A DNA stretch of 32,000 nt, from assembly GCA_963677765.1 (NCBI GenBank), contig OY782392.1, positions 180,001 to 212,000 of the forward strand, read 5' to 3'. Below, piece by piece: positions 5,555 through 29,579 of this stretch. How positions within the stretch are numbered: position 1 is the stretch's first letter; the number at the start of each line of letters is the position of its first letter. The notes under the pieces were generated by a model. It was not told where the DNA came from, made no database searches, and saw only the letters and a program-made list of their open reading frames with translations. The stretch is from Candidatus Saccharimonadota bacterium. Lineage in GTDB: Bacteria; Patescibacteriota; Gracilibacteria; BD1-5; UBA6164. The position numbers and the translations under genes were made by a program.

Positions 5555-5564
5555 TAAATAAAAT

Positions 5565-6131: not shown

Positions 6132-6164
6132 AAGAAGTCTTATAAAATAAGACTTCTTTTTTTT
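6131..6164. terminator. Bidirectional intrinsic terminator (tsaC / 134-aa ORF)
   Basis: GAAGTCTTAT-aaa-ATAAGACTTC stem (6134-6156) flanked by an A-run and a T8 run. Lies between the convergent tsaC (+) and 6177-6581 (-). Confidence 0.7.
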
Positions 6165-6176
6165 CGCTCCTTTTTT

Positions 6177-6581
6177 TTAAATACGTTTTACACTTTTTTT
6201 CATTATTGAGGCAGAAAAAGTTTTAATCCTACCATCACGATAGACACGTAAAAATCCATTTTCTGCTCTAGCTCTAGCTCCGCCCTCATAGATAAATCCA
6301 TTATCTGGTATCATCCTAAGAGTAGCTGGTGTTGTCATAGATAATGTATCAGAAATAAGAGAAGAAAAATCTCGCTCAACAGAATCAACATCATAAACAA
6401 CAACAGAAAAATCATCTTCAGTAAGTATCAAAGCCTTCTTAGCATGAACAAGTGCAGAAATAAGGCTAGAATTAAGCTCGAATGTTAATTTTGTTTTATC
6501 AAGCTTATCCTGAAAATGAAAATAAACCAAATTAGGACTATATTTTTTCAAAACAGAGTTAGTATTAATTTCGCTTTTCAC
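6177..6581 (-). CDS. Hypothetical 134-aa protein, compositionally foreign, readable in both code 11 and code 25
   Basis: Intact ORF in the standard-code track. GTG start at 6581 with GAGGA (6589-6593 on plus) 7 nt upstream. No in-frame TGA; all 6 Gly are GGN. Visibly GC-richer than its flanks. TAA stop. No TM segment or signal peptide seen. I do not recognise the family (…IPDNGFIYEGGARARAENGFLRVYRDGRIKTF…). Confidence 0.72.
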   Translation of the reverse strand: MKSEINTNSVLKKYSPNLVYFHFQDKLDKTKLTFELNSSLISALVHAKKALILTEDDFSVVVYDVDSVERDFSSLISDTLSMTTPATLRMIPDNGFIYEGGARARAENGFLRVYRDGRIKTFSASIMKKSVKRI

Positions 6582-6624
6582 AATAATTTCCTCAGTTAAA
6601 ACACTAATAGAAAAGTGTTTTATG

Positions 6625-6652
6625 ATTATAAAACATAATTATTTTAAGTCAA
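6625..6652 (-). promoter_or_regulatory. Candidate sigma70-type promoter of the 134-aa ORF
   Basis: On the minus strand: TTGACT (6652-6647), 16 nt, TATAAT (6630-6625). Followed by a 5'UTR hairpin AAAACACT/AGTGTTTT (6597-6620). An AT-rich background makes -10-like hexamers common. Confidence 0.4.
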
Positions 6653-6675
6653 TTATTTTTAATAATAATATATAA

Positions 6676-6966
6676 TTATAAACCTCAAAGTATATTCAAA
6701 GCATTCCTATATCATAAATTTTCACTATTCAATGATTTTGAAACTTTTGATATAGTAGCAGAACTCATACCAGTCTTTTTTTCTATTCTAGAATAAGATA
6801 TTCATTCTTCTAACATCTTTGCAACTTCTAATTTTCTAGAAAAATCAATCATTTCTTTTTCAGACATCAAATCCAATAAGAACTCAAAAATTCTTTCTTT
6901 TGAGTCTAATCTACTAAATATAGTTAATAAATCCTCCATTTCATAAGCTAATTCATTCTTTTTCAT
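6676..6966 (-). CDS. TrpR-like / YerC-YecD family HTH protein
   Basis: 96 aa. MKKNELAYEMEDLLTIFSRLDSKERIFEFLLDLMSEKEMIDFSRKLEVAKMLEEGISYSRIEKKTGMSSATISKVSKSLNSENLGYRNALNILGGL. The G-x-SY..I...TG.S.ATIS.V HTH signature fits the Trp-repressor-related family. Four in-frame TGA. Confidence 0.78.
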
Positions 6967-7002
6967 AAATTAATTTTAATAAATAAATTAATATAAAAAT
7001 TC

Positions 7003-7169
7003 AATGTTAAAAACTCTTAAAAAATCACTTTAGATAACTAAAGAATTTTGTTATTTACTACTTTAATCAACTAAAGTCAAAAGTCAAAAGATTATTAATT
7101 ACTACTATGTATAATAAGTATTATTCCCTACTTTTAGCCAATAAATCATTGTTAAAAACTTTTAACAAT
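7003..7169 (-). promoter_or_regulatory. Cluster of palindromes/repeats upstream of the TrpR-like gene (candidate operators)
   Basis: Perfect palindrome ATTGTTAAAA-AC-TTTTAACAAT (7148-7169). Related AATGTTAAAAACTCTTAA (7003-7020). Inverted repeats CTTTAG-ataa-CTAAAG (7028-7043) and ACTTTA-atcaac-TAAAGT (7060-7077). Tandem AGTCAAA x2 (7075-7088). Confidence 0.3.
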
Positions 7170-7205
7170 AAAAAAAAGAGATAGTTTAAATCCATCTCTT
7201 TTTTA
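7170..7205 (-). terminator. Intrinsic terminator of trpS
   Basis: AGAGAT (7177-7182) / ATCTCT (7194-7199) stem. On the minus strand it is followed by a T8 run (plus-strand A-run 7170-7177). Lies 20 nt after the trpS stop. Confidence 0.6.
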
Positions 7206-7223
7206 ACATTATTAATTTTATAA

Positions 7224-8198
7224 TTATTTTCATAATCATACTATTTCCATCATATCATTGTATTTTTTAGTTGCCATATTATTCATTTCATCATTTCATT
7301 TTTTCAATCTTTCTTCTATATAAGACATATTATTTTCAAAACTATTAAATCTTTCTCTAGCTTCAGAAAAATAATCCAAAATAATATCTAATAACTCTAG
7401 TTTTGCATGACCATATCAATAACCTCATTCTCTATACTTAGAAGCTATTTCATCTTGTTTTTCTTGTGATGCAAATAATTTTATAAGTGCAAATACATTA
7501 CAAGATTCAGGATCTTTTGGGTCATCAAGACCTTCACTACCTGTTACTATAGACATTATTTTCTTTTTTAGAGTTTTTTCATCATCAAATATACCTATAA
7601 AATTATCATAGCTTTTACTCATTTTTCTACCATCAGTTCAAGGTATAGTCATAACTTCTTCTTGAACATATTGCTCAGGCAACTTAAATAAATCCACTCA
7701 ATATGTTTTATTGAAATTCCCTGCTATATCACGAGCAAACTCCAAATGCTGTATTTGATCTTTTCATACAGGAACTATATCAGTATCATAAGTAATAATA
7801 TCACTAGCCATAAGTATAGGATAATTAAAAGTAGCCATATTTATATCACTGTTTTTATTTTGACTATCTTTGAAACTATGAGCTCTAAGCATCAAACTAT
7901 ATGGAGTAACACTTGATAATACCCAAGTAATATTGTTTATATGAGTTATTTTTGATTGTTCATATACAACTATATCAGCATCTTCAGGTAACAAAGCAAA
8001 ATATTCTTTTAACATTCTAAGTTTATTTCTTTCCATAATTTCTTTATCATGAACAGAAGTCAAAGAGTGATAATCAGCTACAAAAATATAAGCTTTTTTT
8101 CATTTTGCTAAATCTAAAAAAGGTTTAAATGCACCAAAATAGTTTCATATATGCATACCATTTCATGTTGGTTTTATTCAAGTTAATACTTTTTTCAT
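7224..8198 (-). CDS. trpS: Tryptophan--tRNA ligase
   Basis: 324 aa. [53 protein letters not shown]...[39 protein letters not shown]...KMSKSY.... Class I HIGN-type and KMSKS motifs present. Stop TAA (plus tta 7224-7226). Confidence 0.93.
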
Positions 8199-8258
8199 TT
8201 TTTATTAATTGGTTAAATACTAAATCAATAGTAACAGAAAATATTTTTTTTCAAAGTT

Positions 8259-9119
8259 TTATATAGTTTTTTTAAACAAAAATCAAGCTGATTCTCAATA
8301 TTTTATATTTTTTGAACATAATCATATATAAACATCAAATCAATAATTATTTATATAGTTATAATCATTATCAATAGCATAAGCTTCTCATTTTTTTATT
8401 TTTATAAATCAATTATAATCATCTAAAAATTTAAAGTTATCAGATTTTGGATATATTTCATATATAAACTTATACTTATCAATTTCAGAACTAGTTTTTA
8501 TTCAAAAATCTATAAATCAATAATAAGATAAAAAATTTAAAACATTATTATATCATACAATAAAAGAATCTTTAGAATTATGATTTCAACACTCAATTCA
8601 AAAAGCTTTTTTATTTTTTCTTATAAGATAAGATATCAAAGCTCATGAATTTGATAAATCATCATATAAAATTGTTTTTATATCAAAAAAATTTAAAGAT
8701 TCATCTATTAAATACTCATCACATATTCATATATTTAAATCTCATTTAGAAACACTATGCAAATCAATAACATAATCTAACTCATCCAAAATATTAGTTA
8801 ACTCTTTAAATCTAGAAAATTCATAAGAATTATCTAAAGATTGTTTATCACTAATTCTATTTAAATCATCATCTATAAATCTAAGTCATTTTTTATATGA
8901 TTCTATATTTGCTGATATAAAATATATCTTTCATGATTTTAATTTATTTTTAATATCAAAATCCTTTAAAAGCTTATAAAAAACTTCTAATCATACAATT
9001 TCATTTCAATGAGTTATAGCTATTATTCAAATATTTTTTCATGGCTTTCATGAATCTATAACAGTAATTCAATCAACTCACTTATAATTATTTTCTAAAA
9101 AAGTTTTATATCTTATCAT
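8259..9119 (-). CDS. Succinylglutamate desuccinylase/aspartoacylase (AstE/AspA, M14-like) family protein
   Basis: 286 aa. ...GKNIGIIAITHGNEIVGLEVFYKLL...GKIYFISANIESYKKGLRFIDDDLNRIS...LDYVIDLHSVSKG.... The HGNE Zn-ligand motif, DLNR and DLHS fit this family. Its ATG (9119-9117) overlaps the upstream gene's last codons. Confidence 0.72.
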
Positions 9120-9952
9120 AAAATATCATTTACTAAATTATAAATTTTTGTTGTATTAAGAATTAAGTCATCCCTATTTCATACACCATCTACAGTTCTT
9201 ATCTCAGTTGTATAACTAATTCATGGCTTCTTTAATCATACATAATTGTAACTAAATCTTGGATTATCTCAATCCAACAAAATATTTTTTATATCTGACT
9301 TTGTTAATCAAATAATTCCAGAAAAATTTATAGGATCTAACTCTGAAATAAGTTCATTTGGATCTAAAAATTCTAATTTTAAAAGAGCTTCAATTACCAA
9401 AGATACCATTTCATGCCTTTTATCTGACAACAACAACAAAGACTTATCTTTTTTATATATTTCACTAATAGCATTAGATAAAAAAACATGTCTATCAAAA
9501 TTATTATCTGTATCTATATGAAAATGTATACCTCAAATATTAGTAGCCTTTCTATAATTATTTCCTATACTTCTAAGTAAAGAATCTATTTTAGAGTATT
9601 TCTCTACTCATCAACTAACAACAGCATCAAAATTTTGATTAGGAACAGATCAATTAAGAAAAAACAATCACATTTCATTGTATACAATATCATAAACCAT
9701 TTCATAAAGTTTAACTAGCTCAGATTGTGCATCTTCTATAGAACACTTAGGTCATCCATTTCTTATTTCTATTTGAGAAGCATCTAACTCTCTTCATATC
9801 ATATTCTTGATAATATTTTTAGAATATTTTCTTTCTAATAAATTCATAACATATTCACTAGTTTGAACTCAATTATAATAATTCATAACATTCTCATTAT
9901 TATCAACTATTATAAATTCAGCTTCAAAAGATATTCAATTAGATTTATTCAT
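9113..9952 (-). CDS. Putative carboxylate-amine ligase (GCS2/YbdK-like), assignment tentative
   Basis: 279 aa. MNKSNGISFEAEFIIVDNN...GRELDASQIEIRNGGPKCSIEDAQSELVKLYEMV...ATNIGGIHFHIDTDNNFDRH.... The E-x-E ... ELxxxQIEI ... GxHxH pattern resembles glutamate-cysteine ligase family 2, but the protein is shorter than YbdK. Stop TAA (9113-9115) overlaps the next gene's start (ATGATAA). Confidence 0.5.
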
Positions 9953-10150
9953 ATTTAATTTTTTACAAAATAAAAGCATTATTTCAATAATCTGAAATAA
10001 CGCTTAGAAATTCAAAATGTTTTTTAACACCTGAAAAAACTAGAAACTGATACTCCAGACTCTAGATTTTTTCCAAGATGCATTTTTTGAAAACATTTTC
10101 ATTATCATTTTTTTAATTTTTATATAAATATTTTATAACAATTTTTAATA

Positions 10151-11278
10151 TTATTGCAAATTATTATTTATATTTAAGGCTGCAACATATCAACTAGACC
10201 AAGCCCATTGAAGATTAAATCATCAAGTTTTACCTGTAACATCAACTACTTCTCATATAAAATATAATCATTGATATTTTTTAGATTGCATATGATTATC
10301 CAACTCATCTGTATCTATTCAAGCTCAAGTAGCTTTTGCTTCTTTCCAGCTTCTCCAATTTTGTAATTCTAAATTAACATAATTATTTTCTTCATTTAAA
10401 TCAAAAAATTTTATCAATCTTTTAGGAGTATTATCTATATCAAATTCTAAATCCAAAGATAGATTATTAATTATATATTTTTCAAAATCATCTTCTTTTA
10501 ATTTTATAGAATTTAGATACTCTCATATAGAGTTTGATAAATTATGAACTATAGGTCAACTAATACCAAAATGCGTAAAAAGCATTGGTCAGTTTTCAAA
10601 ATATATAGATTTTTTATTATTTTTATCTATTAATTTCATTTTTAAATTACAACTAACTCAACTAACTTCGCTTAAATCTTTTTTAGTAGCCATTCAACAA
10701 AGAGTCCTATAAGGTGGGATTATCTTTAATCATAAATTAGATGCTATATTATAGCCTTCTCCTGTAGTTCAAATATGAGAAAAACTTTTTCATCAACTAG
10801 ATATTATAACATTTTTAGATATATATTTTTTTCATCATTCTATAGAAATTTCATAATTTCAATCTTCTAATAATACAACATTTTTTACATCTTGATTTAT
10901 TTTTAGTTCACAATTATTTTTTCTAGTATTATCAAGTAAACAATTTAATAATTCCTTACTATCTCAACTTTCTAAAATAAGTCTAGACCTATCTTCTTCT
11001 ACTATATTTATTCAATTTTCAGCAAAAAAACTCATTATATCCCAATTTGTATAACGAGAAAAAATACTATGAAGAAATTTTTTATTTTGAGTAAAATAAT
11101 CTCTTACAGGTTCTATATCCATATTTGAAACATTAGCTCTTTCTCAACCAGAAAGCAACACCTTCATACCTGGTTTAGCTGTTTTTTCAAGGATTAATTT
11201 TTTATATTTTTTATCTAAGTTAATTCAAGCAAATAATCATGCAGCTCATGCTCAAACTATAACAACATCATAAATCAT
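10151..11278 (-). CDS. HI0933/YhiN-family FAD-dependent oxidoreductase
   Basis: 375 aa. MIYDVVIVGAGAAGLFAGINL...KVLLSGGERANVSN...IISSGGKSFSHIGTTGEGYNIA...LFTHFGISGP...[29 protein letters not shown]. Dinucleotide-binding GxGxxG, with both Gly of GAGAAG encoded by TGA. Confidence 0.85.
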
Positions 11279-11353
11279 CTATATTTATTTATTTTTTATT
11301 TATTAAGCTTATTATACATATTTTAAAAAAATAATAAAATCATATTAAAAAGA

Positions 11354-11387
11354 AATAAACCAACAAGAATTAACTTGTTGGTTTATT
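11354..11387 (-). terminator. Intrinsic terminator downstream of dapD
   Basis: AATAAACCAACAAG-aattaa-CTTGTTGGTTTATT, a perfect 14-bp stem. A T-rich tract follows on the minus strand. Confidence 0.7.
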
Positions 11388-11401
11388 ATTATCCACCTTT
11401 T

Positions 11402-12445
11402 TTAATTTTTATGAAGTTCTTCATTCAAAGTAACTTCGTTAACTTTTTTGATAACTTCGATTGCACCGCTCTGAGAGTTTCTTCTAAAAAGAAGATCACT
11501 AACTCCGCTAAGCTCTGATGCTTTCATAACTGTTGGAAAATTATCATCACCAAGATAGGTAACCTTTGATCCTGCTGTAATATACAGACCAGCTTCAATA
11601 ACACAATTATCACCCAGAGGAATCCCTACACCGGCATTTGCACCAATAAGACAGTTTTCACCAACTGAAATACGGACATTATTACCACCACTAAGAGTAC
11701 CCATAGTTGAGCAACCACCTCCAAGATCACTACCATCACCTACAACAACACCAGCAGAAATTCGACCTTCAATCATTCCTTTTCCAAGAGTACCTGCATT
11801 GAAGTTTACAAAACCTTCATGCATTACAGTAGTACCCTCACCAAGGTAAGCACCTAGACGAATACGAGCACCATCACCTACACGAACACCTGAAGGAACT
11901 ATATGATTAAGCATCTTTGGAAACTTATCCACACTATAAACTTCAAGATTAATACCCTGCACACGAGCATCAAGTTGTTTTTGACTATAGTCTTCAATAG
12001 TCATAGCACCTTGACTTGTCCAAACAAGGTTTGGTAAATTAGCAAAGATACCATTCAAATCGATACAGTTAGGTTTAACCGCTCTAGTAGAAAGCAGTGA
12101 AAGCTTAAGATAAGATTCAAATATATCTTTTGGCGGCTCATCTTTTTCAAGAATAGTTACATAGGCTCTCGATTGAGCTGAACGAACAGTATCAAGAAAA
12201 CTGATAGTTCCAGAATGACCATCGAAGATTTTAATAAGATGGTCAATATTCATTTCCGAAATAGAAAAAGTAGAATTACCACCATCATAAGAAAAAATAT
12301 CAGAACAGATTTTGACAAAATCAGAAACTGCTCCATGATTTTTTTCAGTTTGCAAAAAAGATTTTGCAAAAAAAACTTCAATAACCTCACCTTTGCTATC
12401 AGTTGTAGCAATACCAAGACCAGCTGCGAAAATATTTTTAGACAT
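11402..12445 (-). CDS. dapD: 2,3,4,5-tetrahydropyridine-2,6-dicarboxylate N-succinyltransferase, long gammaproteobacterial-type (compositionally foreign)
   Basis: 347 aa, open in both code 11 and code 25; zero in-frame TGA and every Gly is GGN. ATG 12445 is preceded by AAGGAG (plus ctcctt 12453-12458). The track's longer start at 12517 has no RBS. Hexapeptide beta-helix ...GVRVGDGARIRLGAYLGEGTTVMHEGFVNFNAGTLGKGMIEGRISAGVVVGDGSDLGGGCSTMGTLSGG... and LLFRRNSQSGAIE. From memory these match the ~340-aa Pseudomonas-type DapD closely. Confidence 0.92.
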   Translation of the reverse strand: MSKNIFAAGLGIATTDSKGEVIEVFFAKSFLQTEKNHGAVSDFVKICSDIFSYDGGNSTFSISEMNIDHLIKIFDGHSGTISFLDTVRSAQSRAYVTILEKDEPPKDIFESYLKLSLLSTRAVKPNCIDLNGIFANLPNLVWTSQGAMTIEDYSQKQLDARVQGINLEVYSVDKFPKMLNHIVPSGVRVGDGARIRLGAYLGEGTTVMHEGFVNFNAGTLGKGMIEGRISAGVVVGDGSDLGGGCSTMGTLSGGNNVRISVGENCLIGANAGVGIPLGDNCVIEAGLYITAGSKVTYLGDDNFPTVMKASELSGVSDLLFRRNSQSGAIEVIKKVNEVTLNEELHKN

Positions 12446-12499
12446 TGTATGTCTCCTTTTGTTTTGATTTTTTACACACAAAAAAATTTGGTGAATTTT

Positions 12500-12527
12500 A
12501 TTATAAAAACAAAACAAGATAAGTCAA
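12500..12527 (-). promoter_or_regulatory. Candidate sigma70-type promoter of dapD
   Basis: On the minus strand: TTGACT (12527-12522), 16 nt, TATAAT (12505-12500), about 55 nt upstream of the dapD ATG. Confidence 0.45.
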
Positions 12528-12531
12528 TATT

Positions 12532-12565
12532 AAAAAAATAAGTCTATGAATAGACTTATTTTTTT
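12532..12565 (-). terminator. Intrinsic terminator of the aldehyde dehydrogenase gene
   Basis: AATAAGTCTA-tgaa-TAGACTTATT stem (12537-12560) with flanking A and T runs. Immediately after (and overlapping) the stop at 12564-12566. Confidence 0.7.
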
Positions 12566-13928
12566 AATCAATTATGACTTTTTTATTTGTAAAAGCTTTT
12601 AATCAATCAGGTCAATTTTCTTTACCATATCATGATTTCTTTACTCAACCAAAAGGTAAACTAGCTCTAGATCAAGCAATATTATTTATAAAAATCATAC
12701 CTCAATCAAGTTTTCTAGCAACTGTTTTTGCCTCATCTAAATCATTTCATACAACAACTGCAGATAATCAAAAGTCACTACCGTTAGCAAGTTCTATTGC
12801 TTCATCAATAGTAGAATATTTCATAACAGAAGCAACTGGTCAAAATATCTCTTCATTAAAACTACTAGTTTCTTTTGTAACATCAGCCAATACTGTTGGT
12901 GGGAAAAAATATCACTTTCTATCAATTATTTTTCATCAAGTTACAAGCCTTGCTCAAGTATCAATAGCTTTTTGTACTTGAGATTCTATTTCTAGTATTG
13001 CTTTTTTACTAGATAAAGGCTGAACTTGAGTTTTTTCATCCATTGGATCTCAAATAACTAAAGAAGACATAGCTTCTCAATATTTTTGAACAAATAAATC
13101 ATATTTAGATTCAGGAATCAAAAATCTTTTTGAAGAGTTACAAGCTTGTCAACCATTTCTCATTCTTCAATTAATAGCTAAATCAATAACTTTATCTAAG
13201 TCACTATTTTCTAAAACTACAAAAGCATCATTACCTCATAATTCTAAAACACTAGGTTTCAAATATTTTCAAGCTAAAGATCATACTGCACTACCCGCTC
13301 ATTCACTTCAAGTAAGATTAACTCATGCTATATATTTATTTGATATAATATGTTCACTTAAGCTACTAGAAACGAAAACATTTGTATAAACACCCTCTGG
13401 AAAACCAGCTTTTACAAATAATTCTTCTATTTTTATAGCTGTCATTGGAACATTAGAAGAATGTTTATATATTTGAGTATTACCAGCCAAAATATTTGGA
13501 ACTGCTGCCCTTAATAATTGATTAAAAGGAAAATTCCATGGAGCTACTCAAAATATAACACCGATTGGATCGTATACTTCTTTTACATTAAGTCATTCAG
13601 ATTGGTATTCTTTTTCTTTTAAAATTTCTTCAAAATTATTAGCAAACCATCTTATAAGGTTAGCTGTTTTTTCTAGTCATGCTTTTGAAACATGATTAAG
13701 CATTCACATTTCTACAGTTTCCAATCTAGAACATTCTTCAATATCTTCTTCTAATAAATCAGCTAATTTTAAAAATAATTCTTTTTTATATGAACTACTT
13801 GTTTCCTTCCATGATAAAAAAGCATTATGTGCTTTTTCTATAGCTTGATTAACTTGTTCTTCATCAAGAGTTTCAAATTCTCAATTTAATTCTTCTGTAT
13901 ATGGATCTATTGATTTTAAAATAGACAT
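12564..13928 (-). CDS. NAD(P)-dependent aldehyde dehydrogenase (succinate-semialdehyde dehydrogenase-like)
   Basis: 454 aa. ...[41 protein letters not shown]...[34 protein letters not shown]...RNGGQACNSSKRFLI...EEIFGPVASVMKY...ANGSDFGLSAVV.... Catalytic Cys and the ELGG motif present. The antisense track ORF 12574-12981(+) is a shadow. Confidence 0.88.
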
Positions 13929-13966
13929 AATAATATAGTTATTTTTATAAAATTTATATAGATATA

Positions 13967-15583: not shown

Positions 15584-15664
15584 TTTTTTTATTTATAAAT
15601 TTAAATTTATTAGTGCTATATTTTATATAGTAAAATAAAAAAATCAAATTTAATTTATAATTAT

Positions 15665-15701
15665 AAAAAACATAGTGTATTTTAAATACACTATGTTTTT
15701 T
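15665..15701 (-). terminator. Intrinsic terminator of ppk2
   Basis: CATAGTGTAT-tttaa-ATACACTATG stem (15671-15695), extended by A6/T6 runs. Confidence 0.7.
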
Positions 15702-15705
15702 TATT

Positions 15706-16698: not shown

Positions 16699-16804
16699 AT
16701 ATTTATATAAGAATTTAAATTATATATTTTTAAAGACAAAAAAGACTATACATATATTTTTATATTTGTCAATACTTTTAATATAAAAATTATAATAGTC
16801 AATA

Positions 16805-16834
16805 ATAAAAGTCCTTATATATAAGGACTTTTAT
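16805..16834 (-). terminator. Intrinsic terminator of thrS
   Basis: ATAAAAGTCCTTATAT/ATATAAGGACTTTTAT palindromic hairpin directly after the thrS stop (16843-16845). A T-rich tract follows on the minus strand. Confidence 0.7.
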
Positions 16835-16842
16835 TATTTTTA

Positions 16843-18717
16843 TTAAAGAGCTTTATTTTCAATCTCTTCTAATATTCTAGATTTAAAATCAGATAATTTT
16901 TCAACTGTTTGTTCTTTTGTTTTATAATTTCTAACTGAAACAGTTCAATCTGTTTCTTCTTGTTCACCTATAACTAATATATAATTGTTATGCATTTTTT
17001 CAGCATTTCTAACTTTTTTATTAAGTCAATCAGTAGAAAAGTCTCATGAAGCTCTTATTCAAGAATTTCTTAATTCTTTTAATACAGATTCTGCATAATC
17101 ATCAAATTTTGGTAAAACAGGAATTATAGTTACTTGTCTTGGAGATAACCATAAAGGAAATACTCAAGCAAAATGTTCAATTAATACTCACATTCATCTT
17201 TCTAAACTACCAGAAATAGCTCTATGAATTACTACAGGCCTTTCTTGTTCGTTTTTTTCATTTGTAAAACTCAAATCAAATCTATTTGGTAGATTAAAGT
17301 CACATTGAATTGTTGCTAATTGCCATTCTCTTCATATAGCATCTTTGAACATAAAATCCAATTTAGGACCATAAAAAGCTGCTTCTCATTCTACTCTCTT
17401 GTAAGGTAATTCATTTTCAATACTAGCTTGTTCTAATGCAGTTTCTGCTTGTTGCCAAACTTCTTCACCTCATAAATATTTTGATTTATCTTCACCTCTA
17501 ACAGATAAAGAAACCCAATATTCATCAGTCATACCCAAAGTAGTATAATATTCTTTTATAATATCAGTAATTGCCTTAACTTCGTCTTTTATTTGATTTA
17601 CTCTACAAAATAAATGTCCATCATCTTGAGTAATTGCTCTTACCCTAGTAAGACCTGAAAGTTGACCAGATTTTTCATCTCTATATACAGTTGCTGGTTC
17701 AAAATATCTTACTGGCATGTCTCTGTAACTAAATTGATTATCAGCGAATAATTGCATATGATGAGGACAGTTCATTGGTTTTAAGAAAAATGTTTCTTTA
17801 CTTGTACCTCCAAAAACTTTGAACATATCTTCTAAATAATGACCTGCATGTCATGAAGTTTCATATAAAGATTCTTTTGCTAAGTGTGGAGTCCATACTC
17901 TTTCATATCATCTATTTTTATGTAAATCCCATAAATATTTTTCTATTTCTTGTCTGATAATCATACCAGCTGGTTGCATAAGAGGTAAACCAGGACCTAT
18001 CAAATCAGAAATAGTAAATAACTTAAGTTTTTGACCTATTATTCTATGATCTCTTTTTTTAGCTTCTTCCAACATTTTTAGATGTGAATCTAACTCATCT
18101 TTTGTATCAAAAGCATAAGCATATATTCTAGTTAATTGTTTATTTTCAGCATTTCATAACCAATAAGCTCAAGCTACTCTAGCTAGTTTGAAACTATTTG
18201 GATCTAACTCTTTTGTATTAGATACATGAGGACCAGTACACATATCTATAAATTTTAAAGTTTTTTGTTGATCTCAATCTAGTTCTTCGAATTTTTCAAA
18301 ATTATTATTTATTAAAAAACTTTGTAATTCTTCATTTGAAGATTTTCATTTAGATACATTAAAATAAAAACTAATTTTATCAGATAATTTTTCTGAATTT
18401 TTAAATTCTCAACTTTCAAATCTATCTATTAATTCAGTTTTGAATTCTTCATCCATAGCAGTTAATATTTTTCTAGCAGAAGAATAATCAGTTTCAAATT
18501 TTTTGAATTCTTGATTTTGAGTTATTATTTTTTTCATAGATTTTTCTATTTTTTTCAAGTCTTTATCTGAAAACTCTATATCTCAAAAATCAAAATCATA
18601 ATAAAAACCATCTTCTGTATCTGGTCAAGTAGCTATTTTTGCACTTGGAAAATTTTGTTTAACAGCCTGAGCCATTATATGAGCAAGAGAATGCCTTTTT
18701 GTAGATAAATTAGTCAT
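16843..18717 (-). CDS. thrS: Threonine--tRNA ligase (no N-terminal TGS domain)
   Basis: 624 aa. Starts [24 protein letters not shown] (the HxxxH editing-domain entry, so the ~60-aa TGS domain is absent). ...[13 protein letters not shown]...[27 protein letters not shown]...KSKYLGGEEVW...FYGPKLDF...[14 protein letters not shown]...[23 protein letters not shown].... TGA falls on conserved Gly positions. Confidence 0.95.
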
Positions 18718-18761
18718 AAATACTGATATTTTTATAAATTAAATTTTTTTTAAGCAAAATA

Positions 18762-18793
18762 AAAGCTCTTATTTATTTCTAAATAAGAGCTTT
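18762..18793 (-). promoter_or_regulatory. Terminator-like hairpin inside the thrS 5' leader (possible attenuator)
   Basis: On the minus strand: AAAGCTCTTATTTA-gaaa-TAAATAAGAGCTTT followed by TATTTTGCTT, about 45 nt upstream of the thrS ATG. No upstream minus-strand gene for it to terminate. Candidate promoter TTGACA (18953-18948), N16, TATATT (18931-18926). Confidence 0.4.
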
Positions 18794-19085
18794 GCTATTA
18801 GTATATTTTTATATTATTCCTTATACACAACAAAAATCCCCTATTTAATATAGAAGTAATTAGTTGCAGTTATGGTTACAAGTCATGCTAGGTTCACAAT
18901 GCCTTATTAAGAAATAATTAACATTAATATATATATTATAAAAAAAATGTCAAAAAAGTATTTCAAAAAATAGCAAAAAACATTATAAAAAAATGTCAAA
19001 ATGTTTTTTTATTAAAATTATATAAAAAATACTTTTTTTAGTATAATAATGGCACTTTTTTTGTTTTATAATATTAAACTGGCTT

Positions 19086-21596: not shown

Positions 21597-21626
21597 AAAT
21601 ATATACAAAATAATTTTGTTTTTTAT

Positions 21627-21666
21627 AAAAAAGATAGTAAAGTAATAAAAACTTACTATCTTTTTA
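21627..21666 (+). terminator. Intrinsic terminator after the pilin-like gene
   Basis: AAGATAGTAA (21631-21640) / TTACTATCTT (21653-21662) 10-bp stem followed by TTTATTTATT. Confidence 0.6.
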
Positions 21667-21678
21667 TTTATTAGAATA

Positions 21679-22296
21679 ATGGAAAACAAACAAATCTTTG
21701 ATATAATAGTAAAATCAAATATTGTAAACTTAGAAAAAGTACTAAAAAATATAAAAAATGATAAACAAAAAGAACAAATAAAAAATATGTTTGAGAAGCA
21801 TATGCAAGAAATAGCAAAATATTGTATAGAAAACTTTTATAACAAAGACTTATTAGATGAAAAATTTATAAAATGACTACACTTAATTCATTATCCAAAA
21901 TGATATATAGAAAAACAAAAAACTATATCTTGAGATGCAGAAATAGTTACAATGATACCATGAAATTATAAAACATTAAAAAATTTTGACTGGGTATTAG
22001 TAAAAGATGTAAAAGAAGAAATGAATAAATTAATAAATAATTATAATTTATCGGATAAAAAAGAAGATGATATTTATGATTTTTTATTAAACTTTTTAAG
22101 AATACATCCTTTTTGAAACTGAAATGCAAGAGTATTATCTATAATAGTAGATTTGATGCTTATTAAAAATAATTATCCTGAGTTAAACTTTAATTTAAAA
22201 CAATACAAAGATAAGGAAAATATAAAAAATTTGATTGTAGAATGAATTAAAGAAAGAAATCATAAAGAAATAATAAAAAAAATAAAAGAGCTTTAA
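21679..22296 (+). CDS. Fic/DOC family protein with degenerate active-site motif
   Basis: 205 aa. Motif IHPFGNGNARVLS at 22105-22131 (canonical HxFx[D/E]GNGRxxR); both Gly flanking the first Asn are TGA codons. Stop TAA 22294-22296. Confidence 0.78.
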
Positions 22297-22310
22297 GCTC
22301 TTTTATTTTT
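22282..22310. terminator. Bidirectional terminator between Fic gene and convergent adhesin gene
   Basis: AAAAGAGC-tttaa-GCTCTTTT hairpin (22284-22304) overlapping the Fic stop. T-run on plus, A-run on minus. Confidence 0.65.
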
Positions 22311-24689: not shown

Positions 24690-24767
24690 ATTTTTTTATT
24701 AATTAATATCTAAAACAGGTTAAAATATAGTATAAAAAAATAAATTGTCAATATTATTTTAAAAATA

Positions 24768-24806
24768 AAATAAAAACCAGACATTTTTAGACTGGTTTTT
24801 ATTTTA
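24768..24806 (-). terminator. Intrinsic terminator of the muralytic-protein gene
   Basis: AAAAACCAG (24772-24780) / CTGGTTTTT (24792-24800) stem with an 11-nt loop, just downstream (minus sense) of the stop at 24808-24810. Confidence 0.55.
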
Positions 24807-24807
24807 T

Positions 24808-26457
24808 TTAAGCATTTAATCAAGACTCTCTCATATTTGATAAATATCATCTTAATTGAGCACTTCATAAATGTGCTTTATTTAATCAATCTCAAGCATA
24901 ATAACTTCTACCTGACATATCTTTTGGTAAAGAAGCCCATTCTTTTGATAAGTTTAACTGAAATTGTTCAATACTCATTGAACCATTCATAAATGAATCC
25001 AATCATCTTATTTTCAAAAGATAAAGTCCCATCTTATCTTGATTTTCAGGAGAAAATTTTGCATTCATTCATAATCAAGTAGCTTCTGCTGCAGCTCTAA
25101 GTGTTCATTGTATAAATTGATATTTACCTATAGCTGAAGAAGGTTGTCATGAATTAACAAATTGTCTTTGATATTGTTGTACTTCTCAAATAGTCATACT
25201 TGTAAAATCAATTCTAGATTGATCAGAGTTTCAATATATAGAATTATAATTTCATCATGATTCAAAAATAGATATCAAATCTAAAAGTCATTTTTCTCAT
25301 TCTCTAAGTTCAATATTAGAAAAATCAATTTTATTATTAAATCTTGAATAAGCATCTATTTGTCAATCTCAATCAGTATCAGCAATAGCATCTTTTAATA
25401 ATTCACTATTATTATCTAATCAATAATCTCATCTAATTCTTTCAACTTGAGTAAATAATTCTTCAAGACTTAATTCATATTTATCTTCAGGAGTATCAGA
25501 TAATATAGATTCAAAAGTCTCCATTACTAAATCTGGTTCTATTCATCTACTAAGAGCTTCTTTAGCAATCATAATTTGTAATTTTCATTCGTATCATTCA
25601 AGTAATTGTTCATTTCTATTTGAGATTTTTGTTAATTCCTCAGGAGTTCTTAATTTAGATATATCAACACTTGTAGATTCATGAATAGTAAGCCTCTTAT
25701 TTCAATTAAAAAATTCTCATTTTAGATTACTTCTAGTATATTCAACTCATCCGGAAGTAACTGTTCATACTTCTTCTGGAAGAACTTGTCATGCTGTAGT
25801 TTCTAAATATAATTCTCTATTATATTCTCATTCAAAAGTAAAAGAAAATTCCAATGAATCTATATTTCAGTTAGCTACATCACTAGAATCAATATTATTT
25901 TTAGTTATATACTGTAATCTTGCTTCAGGAGATAAAGCTAAAAACTCTTTATTATTTAATGTTTTTAGTTCTTCATTATTTATATCTAGTTCTTTTATTT
26001 CTCAAGTTTCTTCATTATAATCAACTCATGCTTCATGCTCTAATGTATTAGAAGCTTGTGTTAATCTATTTTTTAATTCATTAATTGTAGTTGATAAATC
26101 ATTTGATTGTTTTGTTGCTTCAAGATACTGATTTCTATAATGATTAAACATTTCGATTGTTGGTCTTGCTTCAGGATCATTTCTAATTTCAGGATCACTA
26201 GTAAGACCTTGTCTTAATCTTTCTGATATTTGACTTGTTATTTTTCAAGTATTTTGTAATGAATCATATTTTTGTTCCAAAGCATCAATTTGTTCCATAA
26301 GCTCTTGTTGTTCTGGAGTCAAATTTTGCCTTTCTAATCTTTCATTTGGAGCTTGTGTTTCATTATTATTTTCAGGAGTTCAAATAGGTCAAGATTCTTG
26401 AAAAGAAGAATACAATAAACTAGAAAAACTTTGTTTAAGATTTTTTATAAATAACAT
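24808..26457 (-). CDS. Coiled-coil protein with C-terminal lambda-lysozyme-like (GH104-type) lytic transglycosylase domain
   Basis: 549 aa. C-term ...LISIFESGGNYNSIYGNSDQ...SSAIGKYQFIQGTLRAAAEATGLGMNAKFSPENQDKMGLYLLKIRGLDSFMNGSMSIEQFQLNLSKEWASLPKDMSGRSYYAGDG.... From memory this parallels phage lambda R: SEGT...GAGRYQLL...FSPKSQDAVALQQIKERGAL...IWASLPGAGYGQ. The N-terminal ~380 aa is E/Q/L-rich and probably coiled coil. No obvious Sec signal peptide. Confidence 0.78.
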
Positions 26458-26512
26458 ATATAAATAATTAAGTTATATTTATATATATATTATCATATAG
26501 GTTTGAAATAAA

Positions 26513-26543
26513 CAAAAAAACACCAATATTGGTGTTTTTTTTT
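26513..26543. terminator. Bidirectional terminator (downstream of rnr)
   Basis: AAAAAAACACCAAT/ATTGGTGTTTTTTT perfect palindrome, 4 nt from the rnr stop. Confidence 0.7.
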
Positions 26544-26546
26544 ATT

Positions 26547-28709
26547 TTATGAATGTACAACTTCAAAGTTTAATCTTAATAAAACTTCATCAGCTTCAAT
26601 TAATTTAACTCTAATATTATCTCAAAGAGTATATTTATTACCTAATTTATCTCTATGAGTTTGCATTTTTTCATCAAAATTTGAAGATTCAACTTCAACA
26701 AAACCTTCTGCAGTATCAGGTAAAGCAACAAAGAATCATTTTGAAATTACTCATGTAATTACTCAGTCAAATTCTTCACCTACTTTATTTTTATAATATT
26801 TAACCAAGAAGTAATCTCTAACTTTGTATTCAAGTTTTTCACTCATTCTTTCTCTTTCACTACATTGTTTAGAAACTTTTGATAATATAGAACCATAATG
26901 ATTTTGTCTTTTTGCATCAAGTTTTTGATTTAGATATTCTTTTATAATTCTATGTATTTGTAAATCAGGATATCTTCTAATTGGAGAAGTAAAATGACTA
27001 TAAAATTGTAAACCTAATCAAAAATGACCAAAATTTATATGAGAGTAACTAGCTTGAGTCAAAGTTCTCAGAGTCATTCTTTCTAAAAATCTTCTTTTAG
27101 CATCATCTAAATCTTTGTATTTATCTAATAATTGACCGAATTCAACAGTATTAGCCTCATCAAATCTAAATTTTATACCAAATAATTGTAATTTATCTTG
27201 TAAATCTAAAATATCATTTTCTTTTGGTTTTTCATGTATTCTATAAACAAATGGGAATTGAGACATCTCTTTGGCAACAGCTTCATTTGCTGATACCATA
27301 AATACTTCAATTAATTTATTTGAGTTATATTTTGGATATTCTTTTACTCAGATTGGATCACCATTTTCATCAAATTCAACAACAGTTTCTGGGAAATCAA
27401 AATCAAGAGTACCAGTTTTTTCTCTATGCTTCATGATTAATTCTTTTAAATCATTAGCATCTTTAATTGTATCTAATAATTGTTTAGTAGCTTCTCATCT
27501 AAACATTAATTCATCTCAAACATTTACATGTCTTTTTTCAATTTCATCTACATCTTTATAAGTTAATCTAAAATCACTTTTAATAACAGATTCATATAGT
27601 TTTGATTTTATTAAATGACCAGTTTTACCTCAAATAGTCATTTCACAAGTCATTGTTAATTTGTCTGTATAAGGATTTAGACTACAAAGATTATTAGATA
27701 ATTTTTCTGGTAACATAGGTATAACTCTATCAGCCAAATAGATAGAAGTACCTCTTTCTAATGCCTCTTTATCTAAAGCAGATCTTTCAGTTACATAATT
27801 AGTAACATCAGCTATATGAACATAAAGTTTATAATCTCAGTTATCCATTTTTTCTAAAGAGATTGCATCATCTAAGTCCTTTGCATCAGCACCATCAATA
27901 GTAAATGTAAATAAATCTCTAAAATCTTTTCTTCTAGATATTTCATTTTTATCTACATTTTCTGAAATTCAAGATAATTGTTCTTGAACATCGTCTCAAA
28001 AAGTAATTCTAGCACCTCATTCAACAGCCAAAGTTAAGATTTCTTCTTCTCTTTTATCTAAACTACCTTTGCTAGAAATAATTTCTTTAATAACTCATTC
28101 TGGATTTTTCTTAGACCACTTCGTAATTTCTACTCAAACTATATCTCAAGAATGAGCTCACATTGCATTAGTACTAGCAACAAATATATCATTTTTGAGA
28201 TTTTTATCTTTTGGAATAACAAATCAAAAATTATTTTTACCAGTTTTATATGTTCAAACAACCAATCATTTTTTTCTTTCAATTACTCTAACTATTTCTG
28301 CTTCTTCTTTTCATTTAAAAACTTTTACACTAGCTTCAACTAAATCTCAGTCCATAGCTGTTTGTTTGTTTCTAGAAAAAACAAAATATCATTTTTTTTC
28401 TTTTCATTCAGGAGTTTCGATTATAGTATCAACAAAACCAAAATCTCAATTTCCTTGAGAGTAAGTTCATACTATATTTGTTTCATTTAATTTATGTTCA
28501 CTTGATTCTTTTAATACACTAATAATTTTAGCTTCTTTACTTTTTCATCATTTTTTATCTAAAACTTCAACTTCAACTAAGTCTCAGTTTGAAGCTCAAT
28601 TAATATTTGGTCCAGCTATGAAGAAATCACTGCTATGAAGCGATTTATCTGTAGGAACAACAAAACCATAACCGTCTTGTTCTTGAAAAACTCATACTGC
28701 TTTTTCCAT
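26547..28709 (-). CDS. rnr: Ribonuclease R with three N-terminal OB/cold-shock-like modules
   Basis: 720 aa. RNB core ...[21 protein letters not shown]...[11 protein letters not shown]...[24 protein letters not shown]...[28 protein letters not shown].... C-terminal S1-like [28 protein letters not shown]. The N-terminus carries three G-x-F/Y...GFGFV...GDLVE modules. Confidence 0.93.
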
Positions 28710-28777
28710 TTGTTTTTGTTTAAAAAATATATTTATAATAATTGTAACATATAAAACAAAAAAATAAAAACAAAAGT

Positions 28778-28805
28778 TTGCAAAAAGATTGACTTTTTAT
28801 ATAAT
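28778..28805 (+). promoter_or_regulatory. Candidate promoter of the microhelix/tRNA-Leu transcript
   Basis: TTGCAA (28778-28783), 16 nt, TATAAT (28800-28805). Lies 15 nt upstream of the GGGGCCG hairpin and 49 nt upstream of tRNA-Leu. Confidence 0.4.
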
Positions 28806-28820
28806 AGCATCACTCTTTAT

Positions 28821-28848
28821 GGGGCCGTGTTAATTTGCGGCTCCACCA
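28821..28848 (+). ncRNA. tRNA-Ala/tmRNA-like acceptor microhelix ending in ACCA (function unknown)
   Basis: GGGGCCG-tgttaatttg-CGGCTCC-ACCA. The 7-bp stem has a G.U pair at the third position (as G3:U70), then single-stranded A + CCA. It is a GC-rich island in an AT-rich spacer, 6 nt upstream of tRNA-Leu. No D, anticodon or T arms. Confidence 0.35.
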
Positions 28849-28854
28849 TATTAA

Positions 28855-28939
28855 GCCCAGATGATGGAATTGGTAGACATGGGGGACTCAAAATCCCCTG
28901 CTTTCGAGCGTAAGGGTTCAAGTCCCTTTCTGGGTACCA
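28855..28939 (+). tRNA. tRNA-Leu (anticodon CAA), class II, CCA encoded
   Basis: Acceptor GCCCAGA/TCTGGGT (G1.U72). Anticodon stem GGGGA/TCCCC with loop CTCAAAA (CAA at 28889-28891). Long variable arm GCT-ttcg-AGC. T arm AAGGG-TTCAAGT-CCCTT. Discriminator A, then CCA. Confidence 0.92.
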
Positions 28940-29199
28940 TAAAAGTTATTAAATATTATTTAGTTTTCTAGATTGTATTTGATAGCTTTTATTTTTTGGA
29001 CTTGAATAGAGAAAAGGAATCATTAAATGCAAAAATTTTTACGATGAATAAGAGTAAAATATTTTTAGTATTTAATAGATTATCTTTCGAATGTCCGACC
29101 CAAAGGGCGACAAGTCCCTTTCTCTAGTACCATAAAAGTTATTAAATATTATTTAGTTTTCTAGATTATATTTGATAGCTTTTATTTTTTGGACTTGAA
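28919..29199. repeat. Direct duplication (~88 nt x2, period ~193 nt) of the tRNA-Leu 3' end plus 67 nt of downstream spacer
   Basis: 28919-29006 versus 29111-29199: CAAGTCCCTTTCT...ACCATAAAAGTTATTAAATATTATTTAGTTTTCTAGATT[G/A]TATTTGATAGCTTTTATTTTTTGGACTTGAA. They differ only in the acceptor 3' strand (CTGGGT vs CTCTAGT) and at one spacer base. Confidence 0.9.
29103..29132 (+). pseudogene. Degenerate 3' fragment of tRNA-Leu (T arm + acceptor 3' strand + CCA)
   Basis: AAAGGG-CGACAAGT-CCCTT-TCTCTAGT-ACCA. It retains the T stem and CCA, but the T loop is 8 nt and altered. Upstream CTTTCGA echoes the variable arm. No matching 5' half could be folded. Confidence 0.5.
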
Positions 29200-29216
29200 G
29201 ATTTATTTTATATTAA

Positions 29217-29256
29217 TAAAAAGTAAAAGAGAGAGTTTTTTAGAAACTCTCTCTTA
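29217..29256 (-). terminator. Intrinsic terminator of the 71-aa ORF
   Basis: AAGAGAGAGTTT (29227-29238) / AAACTCTCTCTT (29244-29255), a 12-bp stem. TTTACTTTTT follows on the minus strand. Confidence 0.7.
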
Positions 29257-29270
29257 ATTTTTCTCCTTTT

Positions 29271-29486
29271 TTATGCGTATGCCCTGGCAATCATATTAAG
29301 TTGTTTGGTGTCAGAGCTAGAGTAAGTAGTGACATAATCACTGCTTGCTTTTGCCATTTGCTCACTTTCAAGCTCACCATCAGAAACAGCCTTCTGAATG
29401 AACTTGAAAACCTTTGCTCTGGCTTTTCTAGCCGATTTTTTAACCGCTTTTCGTCGATCTCCGTGCTCCAAACTATTAAGTGACAT
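29271..29486 (-). CDS. Hypothetical 71-aa protein, compositionally foreign, readable in both code 11 and code 25
   Basis: Intact in the standard-code track. ATG 29486 is preceded by AAGGAGGTG (plus cacctcctt 29491-29499). No in-frame TGA. GC-richer than its flanks. TAA stop. Basic N-half (DRRKAVKKSARKARAKVFKF), acidic/Ser-rich C-half. Family not recognised. Confidence 0.68.
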   Translation of the reverse strand: MSLNSLEHGDRRKAVKKSARKARAKVFKFIQKAVSDGELESEQMAKASSDYVTTYSSSDTKQLNMIARAYA

Positions 29487-29520
29487 AATACACCTCCTTA
29501 TTTACTTTGATTGGGATTTC

Positions 29521-29578: not shown

Positions 29579-29579
29579 A

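Follow-up and report, generated by a model that had tools for sequence, protein, structure and literature searches.

Expression-linked codon bias, in which a codon favoured by mutation dominates the bulk of genes and is purged from a minority that includes the ribosomal-protein genes, is familiar, as are genes captured long ago by transfer (ancient xenologues). Phage morons are autonomous cassettes of a promoter, an open reading frame (ORF) and a terminator. Among bacteria in which Shine-Dalgarno (SD) sites are scarce, the Flavobacteriia keep one before rpsU, following the logic of bS21 autoregulation, and in Bacillus the STAB-SD, an SD-like site in the 5' untranslated region (5'UTR), binds the 30S subunit without initiating and blocks 5'-3' decay. 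SR1 has been placed among the SD-scarce bacteria with altered 16S 3' ends (PMC10783764), and phages compatible with the standard code (code 11) have been reported from Gracilibacteria and Absconditabacteria, hosts that read UGA as glycine (PMC10746230). Here we describe three genes, dapD, orf134 and orf71, that resemble each of these systems in part. They lie in a 32,000-nucleotide stretch of a Gracilibacteria genome (assembly GCA_963677765.1, contig OY782392.1, positions 180,001 to 212,000), referred to throughout as the window. With a probability of roughly 55%, we consider them to belong to a small class, shaped by selection, of monocistronic units with strong or robust translation, from which the glycine codon UGA has been purged, and in which the SD site has been preserved within an otherwise SD-less genome. 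The three genes are:

6177..6581, minus strand: orf134, of a fast-evolving family restricted to Gracilibacteria (134 amino acids, GTG start, 0 TGA, 5 GGN, TAA stop)
11402..12445, minus strand: dapD, for tetrahydrodipicolinate N-succinyltransferase in its long three-domain form (347 amino acids, 0 TGA, 41 GGN, 7 CGN, TAA stop)
29271..29486, minus strand: orf71, an orphan with a basic N-terminal helix (71 amino acids, 0 TGA, 2 GGN, 41% GC, TAA stop)

None of the precedents matches in full. The codon purged here is a reassigned stop codon, its exclusion is absolute and long-term, and the three genes differ from the usual beneficiaries of expression-linked codon bias in having SD sites and a motif past the stop codon, and in preferences for codons other than glycine that are unlike those of ribosomal-protein genes. 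In common with an ancient xenologue, dapD is full-length with three domains, and its product is 50–57% identical to Oceanospirillales and Pseudomonadales enzymes; it differs from a recent one in that the dapD clade is monophyletic and vertically inherited, with a largely ameliorated composition from which TGA is still excluded. The units resemble morons in having a single ORF with its own promoter and terminator, a deviant composition, a position between unrelated genes and presence or absence in one slot, but they lie outside any prophage, have a long vertical inheritance and use promoters of native type. A strong SD on a handful of genes recalls the SD-scarce bacteria (class iv of PMC10783764, which includes SR1); here the SD-led genes are also UGA-free and have a second SD-like site past the stop codon, and they are not known to follow a logic of the bS21 autoregulation kind. 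The code-11-compatible phages share with our genes TGA-free DNA in a UGA-glycine host and, in one orthologue, a TGA-TAA ending (PMC10746230), whereas ours are single chromosomal genes at conserved positions with no phage genes or phage homologues. We found no statement on TGA-free genes in code-25 bacteria in the literature searched. Three findings are undescribed in that literature: that a reassigned stop codon is absolutely excluded over the long term from ribosomal-protein genes, that it is likewise excluded from a discrete set of SD-led genes, and that an SD-like site is conserved past the stop codon.

The window is part of a code-25 chromosome of Gracilibacteria type (a BD1-5-type Gracilibacterium) with an average GC content of about 25%. 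ORF listings under code 25 and table 11 show that its long ORFs need TGA as a sense codon: in 20 native code-25 ORFs, TGA occurs at 58.8 per 1000 codons (about 1 in 17) and GGN at 16.5 per 1000, with about 78% of glycine codons being TGA. The native products are cellular proteins, among them RecG, RsmG, Sua5/TsaC, TrpRS, a Trp-repressor-like protein, an HI0933-type flavoprotein, an aldehyde dehydrogenase, a thiamine pyrophosphate enzyme, PPK2, ThrRS, RNase R, RadA, a Fic protein and large surface proteins. Within the window the TGA-free state is confined to single genes amid TGA-rich neighbours, with TGA/GGN counts of 0/5 for orf134, 0/41 for dapD and 0/2 for orf71. GC content is 31.9%, 36.4% and 41.2% for orf134, dapD and orf71 respectively (native genes, 17.6–28.6%), and GC at third codon positions (GC3) is 0.18, 0.17 and 0.36 (native genes, 0.05–0.13). 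The three genes favour CGT or CGA, CTT and ATT, and native genes favour AGA, TTA and ATA. Codon counts and signal scans thus bear out the first-pass annotation, made by a model from the letters alone, in which the three genes were picked out as TGA-free, SD-bearing outliers of common architecture with every glycine encoded by GGN; its GC estimates of 38–47% were too high. It also took them for the only long ORFs intact in the standard code. Four further table-11 ORFs of at least 100 amino acids are present (12215–12541, 12574–12981, 17470–17826 and 30896–31324), each by position antisense to, or inside, a longer code-25 ORF, which we take to mean that they are not separate genes; among genuine genes, the statement holds.

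Evidence that TGA is kept out of these genes comes from dapD. The nearest assembly found, GCA_041694155.1, is collinear with the window in gene order and is designated L001 among the DNA loci of relatives (L-numbers) that we compared; L004 is the closed genome CP042461.1. Between the window and L001, the synonymous divergence (dS) of dapD is 1.1 and that of its neighbours 0.7–0.97. At conserved glycine sites of native genes, 147 pairs are TGA in both, 40 are GGN in both and 58 are discordant, so that TGA and GGN evidently swap freely at such divergence. Both genomes encode each of the 39 conserved dapD glycines by GGN, even though 15 of the 39 have changed within GGN; from the native discordance of 0.42 per GGN codon, we estimate the probability of this outcome by chance at about 6e-10. 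The same is seen between the window and L168, with 34 of 34 conserved glycines encoded by GGN, and the dapD of L004 uses GGA, one synonymous transversion away from TGA, for 24 of its 42 glycines and TGA for none. These codon comparisons show that the UGA-free state is actively maintained by purifying selection and is not a leftover of recent transfer.

The identity of dapD is clear. Its product contains THDPS_N, THDPS_M and Hexapep_2 domains (PF14790, PF14789, PF14602 and PF00132 in Pfam) and aligns end to end with the Pseudomonas aeruginosa DapD 3R5A (E 4e-108), with a nearly identical catalytic region; the N-terminal and middle THDPS domains and the C-terminal left-handed beta-helix of hexapeptide repeats that characterise the long form are all present. 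No other dap genes occur in the 10-kb flanks of the relatives, these being the flanks that were read. Database relatives are 94, 78, 76, 71, about 63 and 57% identical, followed by gammaproteobacterial enzymes, of which the nearest, from Oceanospirillales, Pseudomonadales and Cellvibrionales, are 50–57% identical. A scan of GTDB genomes returned one Gracilibacterium and 79 Gammaproteobacteria, and a neighbour-joining tree groups the window sequence with P0001–P0009, P0012 and P0013 in a single clade that excludes the Gammaproteobacteria. P0010 and P0014 were considered as further dapD genes of the candidate phyla radiation and set aside, the context of P0014 being proteobacterial (glnD-dapC-dapD-dapE). 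The foreign origin proposed at first pass is upheld by these relationships (50–57% identity to the nearest outside relatives), and we infer that a gammaproteobacterium, a plausible kind of host, was the source from which dapD was captured long ago.

DNA was read for seven dapD lineages: the window, L001, L004, L168, L169, L170 and L173. All seven have 0 TGA against 37–43 GGN, an SD site and a GGAG-type motif shortly past the stop codon, at protein identities down to about 55%. Genes next to dapD in the relatives are rich in TGA and have no SD, L170 being the exception to the latter with an SD on several native genes. The genes on either side of dapD are the same in the window, L001 and L168, and the dapD topology, ((window, L001), L168), is that of PPK2, HI0933, TrpRS, Sua5, RsmG and RecG. 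Synteny and neighbour-congruent trees show vertical inheritance for both dapD and orf134. Across the dapD lineages, CGN/AGR counts fall through 16/0, 11/4, 9/4, 7/4, 7/7 and 3/10 while GC declines from 44% to 36%, and dapD GC3 equals native GC3 in L004 and L169. Because these other foreign marks (CGN, GC and GC3) decay, the durable and specific constraints on dapD are the absence of TGA, the SD and the post-stop site. The CGT codons of dapD are decodable by the host, since native CGN codons are all CGT and align with arginine.

Several observations adjoin dapD. In L173 it is flanked by two nearly identical Transposase_mut (IS256-type) fragments (49–375 and 2859–3092), which suggests relocation by a composite-transposon-like event. 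In L169 two 144-amino-acid ORFs lie directly downstream (5491–5925 and 6127–6561, with 0 and 1 TGA respectively), the first of which is similar to the N-terminal domain of DapD (IGLGIK...SYLKLYL). In the stretch between HI0933 and TrpRS (8259–10003, minus strand) are two very AT-rich genes (17.6% and 23.5% GC), which are missing at that position in L001 and L168; the product of one is a desuccinylase of AstE/AspA type (Pfam E 3e-15), and no family match was obtained for the other. The desuccinylase gene is 2 kb from that of the succinyltransferase DapD, and the two may be functionally linked.

The second gene, orf134, has four homologues found by word search and three more distant HMMER representatives, all of 127–143 amino acids. 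Searches of 5.8 billion proteins and 1.84 billion representatives gave no homologue beyond a narrow group of Gracilibacteria, and there was no match in Pfam, PHROGs, PADLOC, NCBIfam, INPHARED, PLSDB or IMG/VR. It is a real coding gene, as its ratio of nonsynonymous to synonymous substitution (dN/dS) is about 0.18 against the L001 orthologue. It also evolves fast, with 50% identity to that orthologue where neighbouring proteins are 83–92% identical. Orthologues at 50, 35 and 29% identity occupy the same slot between the TrpR and Sua5 genes in L001, L171 and L174 respectively, all TGA-free and SD-led; in L168 the slot is empty. The most informative relative is L174, where three small genes stand in tandem in the slot; each has 0 TGA (4, 4 and 6 GGN), an SD, a TTGACT promoter and a terminator of its own. 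These cassettes have native GC (25–29%) and GC3 of 0.12–0.21, so the SD and the absence of TGA are not by-products of foreign composition. The gap is thus a hot-spot with 0, 1 or 3 small SD-led genes depending on the relative, and orf134 is probably a member of a rapidly diversifying small-protein family within it. A structural model from five sequences (AlphaFold2) was unusable (predicted local distance difference test, pLDDT, 40).

At L001 14296–14308 the orthologue ends ...KRI-TGA-TAA where the window has ...KRI-TAA; code 25 adds one glycine, and the standard code ends the protein at the same residue. Beside the slot, a Trp-repressor-family gene (6677–6967, minus strand) adjoins TrpRS and is conserved in L001, L168, L171 and L174; upstream of it is a repeated TTTTGACTTTTGACTTTAGTTGA element (7020–7100) that is nearly identical in L001.

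The third gene, orf71, has a single homologue, 99% identical and in the same genomic context. None was found outside the lineage, phage, plasmid and IMG/VR collections included, and Pfam, PHROGs, PADLOC and NCBIfam gave no match; it is probably a species-level orphan. Its AlphaFold2 model has three helices with a basic N-terminal helix (pLDDT 68) and no Foldseek match below E = 3. A weak Foldseek match to ribosomal chain 8buu_t, which we take to be bS20, raised the possibility of a divergent bS20, which we rejected (BLASTP E = 15; no Pfam or NCBIfam match). The gene lies near a tRNA-Leu(CAA) (28855–28939), in the last bases of which begins a 73-nt direct repeat (28934–29006 and 29127–29199, 99% identical, 193 nt apart); ahead of the second repeat is a degenerate copy of the 3' half of the tRNA (about 29090–29130). 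The repeat could be a tandem duplication or an old scar of att type next to the orf71 cassette. On the other side of orf71, the upstream OB_RNB/CSD2 gene stops at a palindrome (29535–29580) that contains two divergent TTGACT boxes and might serve as terminator and promoter alike.

Each of the three genes is a monocistronic unit with the following signals:

6625..6652, minus strand: orf134 promoter, TTGACT-N16-TATAAT, 11/12 match to consensus
12500..12527, minus strand: dapD promoter, TTGACT-N16-TATAAT, 11/12 match to consensus, with -35 and -10 boxes kept in L001 and L168
29521..29548, minus strand: orf71 promoter, TTGACT-N16-TATTAT, its -35 box within the palindrome 29535–29580 (perfect, 23+23 nt)
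6589..6593, minus strand: orf134 SD, CTGAGGAAA, 7 nt before the GTG
12453..12457, minus strand: dapD SD, AAAGGAGAC, 7 nt before the ATG
29490..29498, minus strand: orf71 SD, AAGGAGGTG, a 9-nt match to the complement of the canonical anti-SD
6130..6160, both strands: bidirectional terminator of orf134 and the convergent Sua5 gene, fold -17.9 kcal/mol, z -4.2
11354..11387, minus strand: dapD intrinsic terminator, 14-bp stem and T-run, fold -19.1 kcal/mol, z -4.5
29227..29255, minus strand: orf71 intrinsic terminator, 12-bp stem and T-run, fold -16.3 kcal/mol, z -4.4

All three TTGACT-N16-TAT(A/T)AT elements described at first pass are therefore present, but they are not special to these genes: promoters of the same type with a 16-nt spacer precede the native PPK2 gene, the ThrRS leader and a surface-protein gene (16772, 18953 and 24751), and we regard them as native in kind rather than foreign for that reason. 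The hairpin noted after each gene was recovered by terminator search and folding, and the stem sequence of the orf134/Sua5 terminator is conserved in L001 and L171. The contrast between strong SD sites 7 nt from the start and SD-less native genes also agrees with our scan, in which SD-like pentamers occur at only 7 places in 2746 nt of intergenic DNA on both strands. Six of the 7 are the 5' SD and post-stop sites of the three genes, and the seventh is beside tRNA-Leu.

The SD sites are conserved amid changing surroundings. That of dapD is retained in all seven lineages despite differing surrounding 5'UTRs, the orf134 orthologues have AAGGAG in L001, AGGA in L171 and GAGGGGGA in L174, and GGAGGTG is retained before the orf71 homologue of L172 where the flanking UTR differs. 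The canonical 16S 3' end carries the anti-SD as CACCUCCUU. No 16S gene occurs among the first 171 sequences fetched, the window included, and putative pairing of the SD with 16S in this lineage is supported indirectly, by this conservation through sequence turnover. Loss of bS21 is reported to be frequent in this clade (PMC9297842).

Each gene also has an SD-like site between its stop codon and its terminator, as the first-pass annotation had noticed (TAA, an A-run and GGAG or GGTGG):

6167..6171, minus strand: orf134 post-stop site, TAA-AAAAAA-GGAGCG, predicted single-stranded
11393..11397, minus strand: dapD post-stop site, TAA-AAAA-GGTGG, predicted single-stranded
29263..29267, minus strand: orf71 post-stop site, TAA-AAAA-GGAGAA, predicted single-stranded

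GGAG or GGAGG follows the dapD stop in L001, L168, L170, L169, L004 and L173, and the orf134 orthologues end TGA-TAA-AAAAAA-GGAGG in L001 and TAA-AAAA-GGGG in L171. Among 444 complete ORFs from all code-25 loci, the combination of an SD with the absence of TGA is strongly associated with GGAG or GGTGG no more than 18 nt past the stop (Fisher P 3e-9, a value inflated by orthologues). In the L004 124-amino-acid gene and two L174 cassettes, the G-rich element is the terminator stem itself, so independent support comes from dapD, orf134 and orf71 only. The dapD terminators have been wholly replaced between the window, L001 and L168 while the post-stop motif persists, which makes it unlikely that the motif is the ribosome-binding site of the next gene of a donor operon, as had been proposed. 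The motif is unpaired in folds of the window, L001 and L168, or lies in the loop of a small hairpin (L173 by folding, L169 by sequence inspection). Two further roles were rejected: that of ribosome-binding site of a small ORF, there being no consistent start codon behind the motif, and that of a terminator-stem component, since the motif is unpaired in the window, L001 and L168. We regard the post-stop site as a conserved, exposed SD-like element. As a conjecture, it might bind the anti-SD of the 30S subunit for ribosome retention, recycling or 3'-end protection. It resembles STAB-SD in being an exposed SD-like sequence without a start codon behind it, and differs in its position, STAB-SD lying in the 5'UTR.

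Evidence that avoidance of UGA extends to highly expressed genes was found in other code-25 loci, which were collected from metagenomes by scanning for the invariant RpoC motif NADFDGDQM with TGA as glycine (83 stretches, of which 80 were analysed). The ribosomal-protein genes of these loci (12 genes, for bL32, uL10, bL12 (twice), uS2, bS6, uS12 and uS7) together have 0 TGA and 87 GGN, amid neighbours, rpoB and rpoC included, in which 40–75% of glycine codons are TGA; a partial uL1 gene has 2 TGA. Within the window, the TGA fraction of glycine codons is intermediate in ThrRS (0.51), TrpRS (0.57) and RNase R (0.58) and 0.8–1.0 in other genes. The higher the expected expression, the stronger the avoidance of UGA, up to completeness in the top tier, as seen in the TGA-free ribosomal-protein genes and the intermediate values of ThrRS, TrpRS and RNase R. 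The first-pass interpretation was to be abandoned if highly expressed native genes shared the profile of the three; the ribosomal-protein genes do share the absence of TGA, but not the SD or the rise in GC. One locus stands apart: in L153 (metagenome contig Ga0194137_10016953), a code-25-type rpoC fragment at 41% GC has 1 TGA among 79 glycine codons, and an SD precedes rpsL and rpsG. The L153 lineage appears to use UGA as glycine marginally and to retain SD-led initiation.

In the interpretation that we favour, a unit consists of a sigma-70 promoter of native type, a 5'UTR with a canonical SD, and an ORF free of UGA glycine codons that ends in UAA or UAG and is followed by the exposed SD-like purine motif and an intrinsic terminator. 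AT-biased mutation would push the bulk of genes towards TGA, and selection for fast or accurate decoding would keep GGN where ribosome flux is highest. The SD, consensus promoter and strong terminator would mark high-output or robustly translated mRNAs in an otherwise SD-less genome, and the residual GC and CGT/CGA codons of dapD would reflect slow amelioration throughout which TGA stays excluded.

A number of observations weigh against this interpretation. The presumed high output of the three genes is read from sequence signals only, and their proteins receive no mention in a Gracilibacteria metaproteome paper; the DapD and orf134 proteins evolve faster than their neighbours, which is unusual for highly expressed genes. 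The ribosomal-protein genes that avoid TGA come from loci of lineages other than that of the window, and they have no SD (L153 excepted), CGN codons, post-stop motif or raised GC. Log-ratio codon vectors of the three genes and the ribosomal-protein genes correlate at r = 0.35 with glycine and 0.06 without it, in a small cross-lineage sample; the bias common to both sets is avoidance of UGA and, weakly, of ATA and TTA. The native surface-protein gene at 24751 has an equally good promoter, 52 TGA and no SD. The absence of TGA from orf71 concerns 2 glycine codons and is not significant by itself. Two SR1 genomes have non-canonical 16S 3' ends (PMC10783764, supplementary table).

A less likely explanation, which we hold as a second choice, is that the genes form a conditional channel in which a high level of expression would not be the purpose as such: an SD-led, UGA-free regulon that would be independent of tRNA-Gly(UCA), working through SD/anti-SD pairing with the post-stop site as part of the device, and that might serve a life stage, starvation or phage attack on the recoding machinery. 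The SD and post-stop motif are confined to the class and missing from the TGA-avoiding ribosomal-protein genes, and the codon bias of the class beyond glycine is unlike theirs. Among its members, the small ones are fast-evolving orphans amplified in tandem in a single slot, like many arms-race genes, and code-11-compatible phages have been reported from Gracilibacteria (PMC10746230). On the other side, there is no evidence for a condition that removes tRNA-Gly(UCA), the enzyme encoded by dapD is metabolic and not obviously connected with stress or defence, and neither PADLOC nor PHROGs returned a match. On sequence data alone, such a channel is inseparable from simple high expression.

The explanation first proposed, that the genes are recent, unameliorated imports from standard-code bacteria in which the absence of TGA, the SD, the GC content and the post-stop GGAG are passive relics of the donor, is in our view improbable for the set. 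The three genes do deviate from the host in composition and codon usage, the type of dapD is gammaproteobacterial, the dapD lineages show the graded loss of GC and CGN that amelioration predicts, and the L168 slot lacks orf134. But dapD is old, vertically inherited and syntenic in L001 and L168, and near saturation at synonymous sites (dS values against L001 range from 1.1 to 2.4); it has reached native GC3 in two of its seven lineages without ever acquiring TGA, and its closest relative outside the group is 50–58% identical, far from a close donor homologue. For orf134 there is no outside homologue, and its orthologues in the slot have diverged to 50, 35 and 29% identity. Neither orf134 nor orf71 has a homologue in a standard-code organism, phage or plasmid in the databases searched, and the L174 cassettes are native in composition yet SD-bearing and TGA-free. 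Neutral decay is not what is seen either, the SD and post-stop site being kept while flanks change and the latter outlasting replaced terminators. Other genes acquired by a Gracilibacterium do carry alternative coding (PMC6851277). The comparative data thus appear already to refute recent transfer for dapD and orf134, and the proposal is realistic only for orf71, with its GC3 of 0.36, single 99% homologue and position beside a tRNA gene with a 73-nt duplication.

It is considerably less probable still that compatibility with two codes is itself selected, such that the cassettes could be decoded by standard-code SD ribosomes of hosts or prey or of shuttling elements; we found no support for the decoding in a host or prey cell that had been raised as a speculation. 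The absence of TGA, the TAA/TAG stops, a canonical SD (AAGGAGGTG) and sigma-70 promoters would work in a gammaproteobacterium, the TGA-TAA of the L001 orf134 orthologue is the 'backup stop' layout of code-11-compatible phages (PMC10746230), and dapD of L173 is flanked by transposase fragments. However, the positions are chromosomal, syntenic and vertically inherited, the small genes have no homologues in the standard-code genomes, phages and plasmids searched, the promoters are native in type, the ribosomal-protein genes are TGA-free with no reason for dual coding, and no DNA-transfer machinery is linked to the cassettes. A code-11-compatible mobile element or phage is likewise not indicated, the TGA-free state being confined to single genes, phage, plasmid and IMG/VR homologues not having been found and transposase fragments flanking dapD in L173 only; integrated prophages are reported to be TGA-rich (PMC10746230). 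Finally, an assembly or binning artefact, with standard-code fragments chimerically joined into a code-25 contig, would account for the local GC steps at gene borders but is very improbable, as the junctions and neighbours recur in six independent assemblies, GCA_041694155.1, Logan SRR34859076, SRR25400237, SRR24947117 and SRR33871314 and JGI 3300001592, the promoters are native in type and the orf134 terminator is common to the native Sua5 gene.

Some further features of the window were observed. A gathering scan with Rfam returned tRNA-Leu alone, with no riboswitch or leader at the three cassettes. A consensus promoter lies about 200 nt upstream of ThrRS (18738–18953, minus strand), giving a long leader with no Rfam match that may be a divergent T-box or another leader. 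The gene at 29580–30221 (minus strand) encodes a stand-alone protein with three OB_RNB/CSD2 repeats that resembles the N-terminus of RNase R; the full RNase R gene is separate (26547–28796, minus strand), with tRNA-Leu and orf71 in between. A TTGACT...TATAAT promoter just ahead of tRNA-Leu, oriented the same way (28790–28850, plus strand), is followed by GGGGCCG-TGTTAATTTG-CGGCTCC-ACCA. This sequence is a 7-bp minihelix ending in ACCA that resembles a mimic of a tRNA acceptor/T-arm or a tRNA remnant and is not called by ARAGORN or Rfam.

Returning to the selected class of robustly translated units, a broader formulation, which we offer as a possibility well short of an expectation, is that a small set of mRNAs is under a distinct translation regime that would be SD-led, UGA-free, dependent on the anti-SD and independent of tRNA-Gly(UCA). 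It would include a captured dapD kept compatible with the standard code and a diversifying small-protein hot-spot, and the post-stop site would constitute a novel element in cis that retains or recycles ribosomes or protects the 3' end. Standard-code-compatible, GC-richer, SD-bearing genes in code-25 metagenome-assembled genomes are not automatically contamination or recent transfers. The observations also bear on how an SD-poor bacterium uses the few SD sites that it has. Reassigned stop codons are usually seen as fully naturalised sense codons; here UGA is barred from ribosomal-protein genes and from a few SD-led genes, and its exclusion provides a testable handle on the cost of decoding a reassigned codon, whether in speed, accuracy or tRNA supply.

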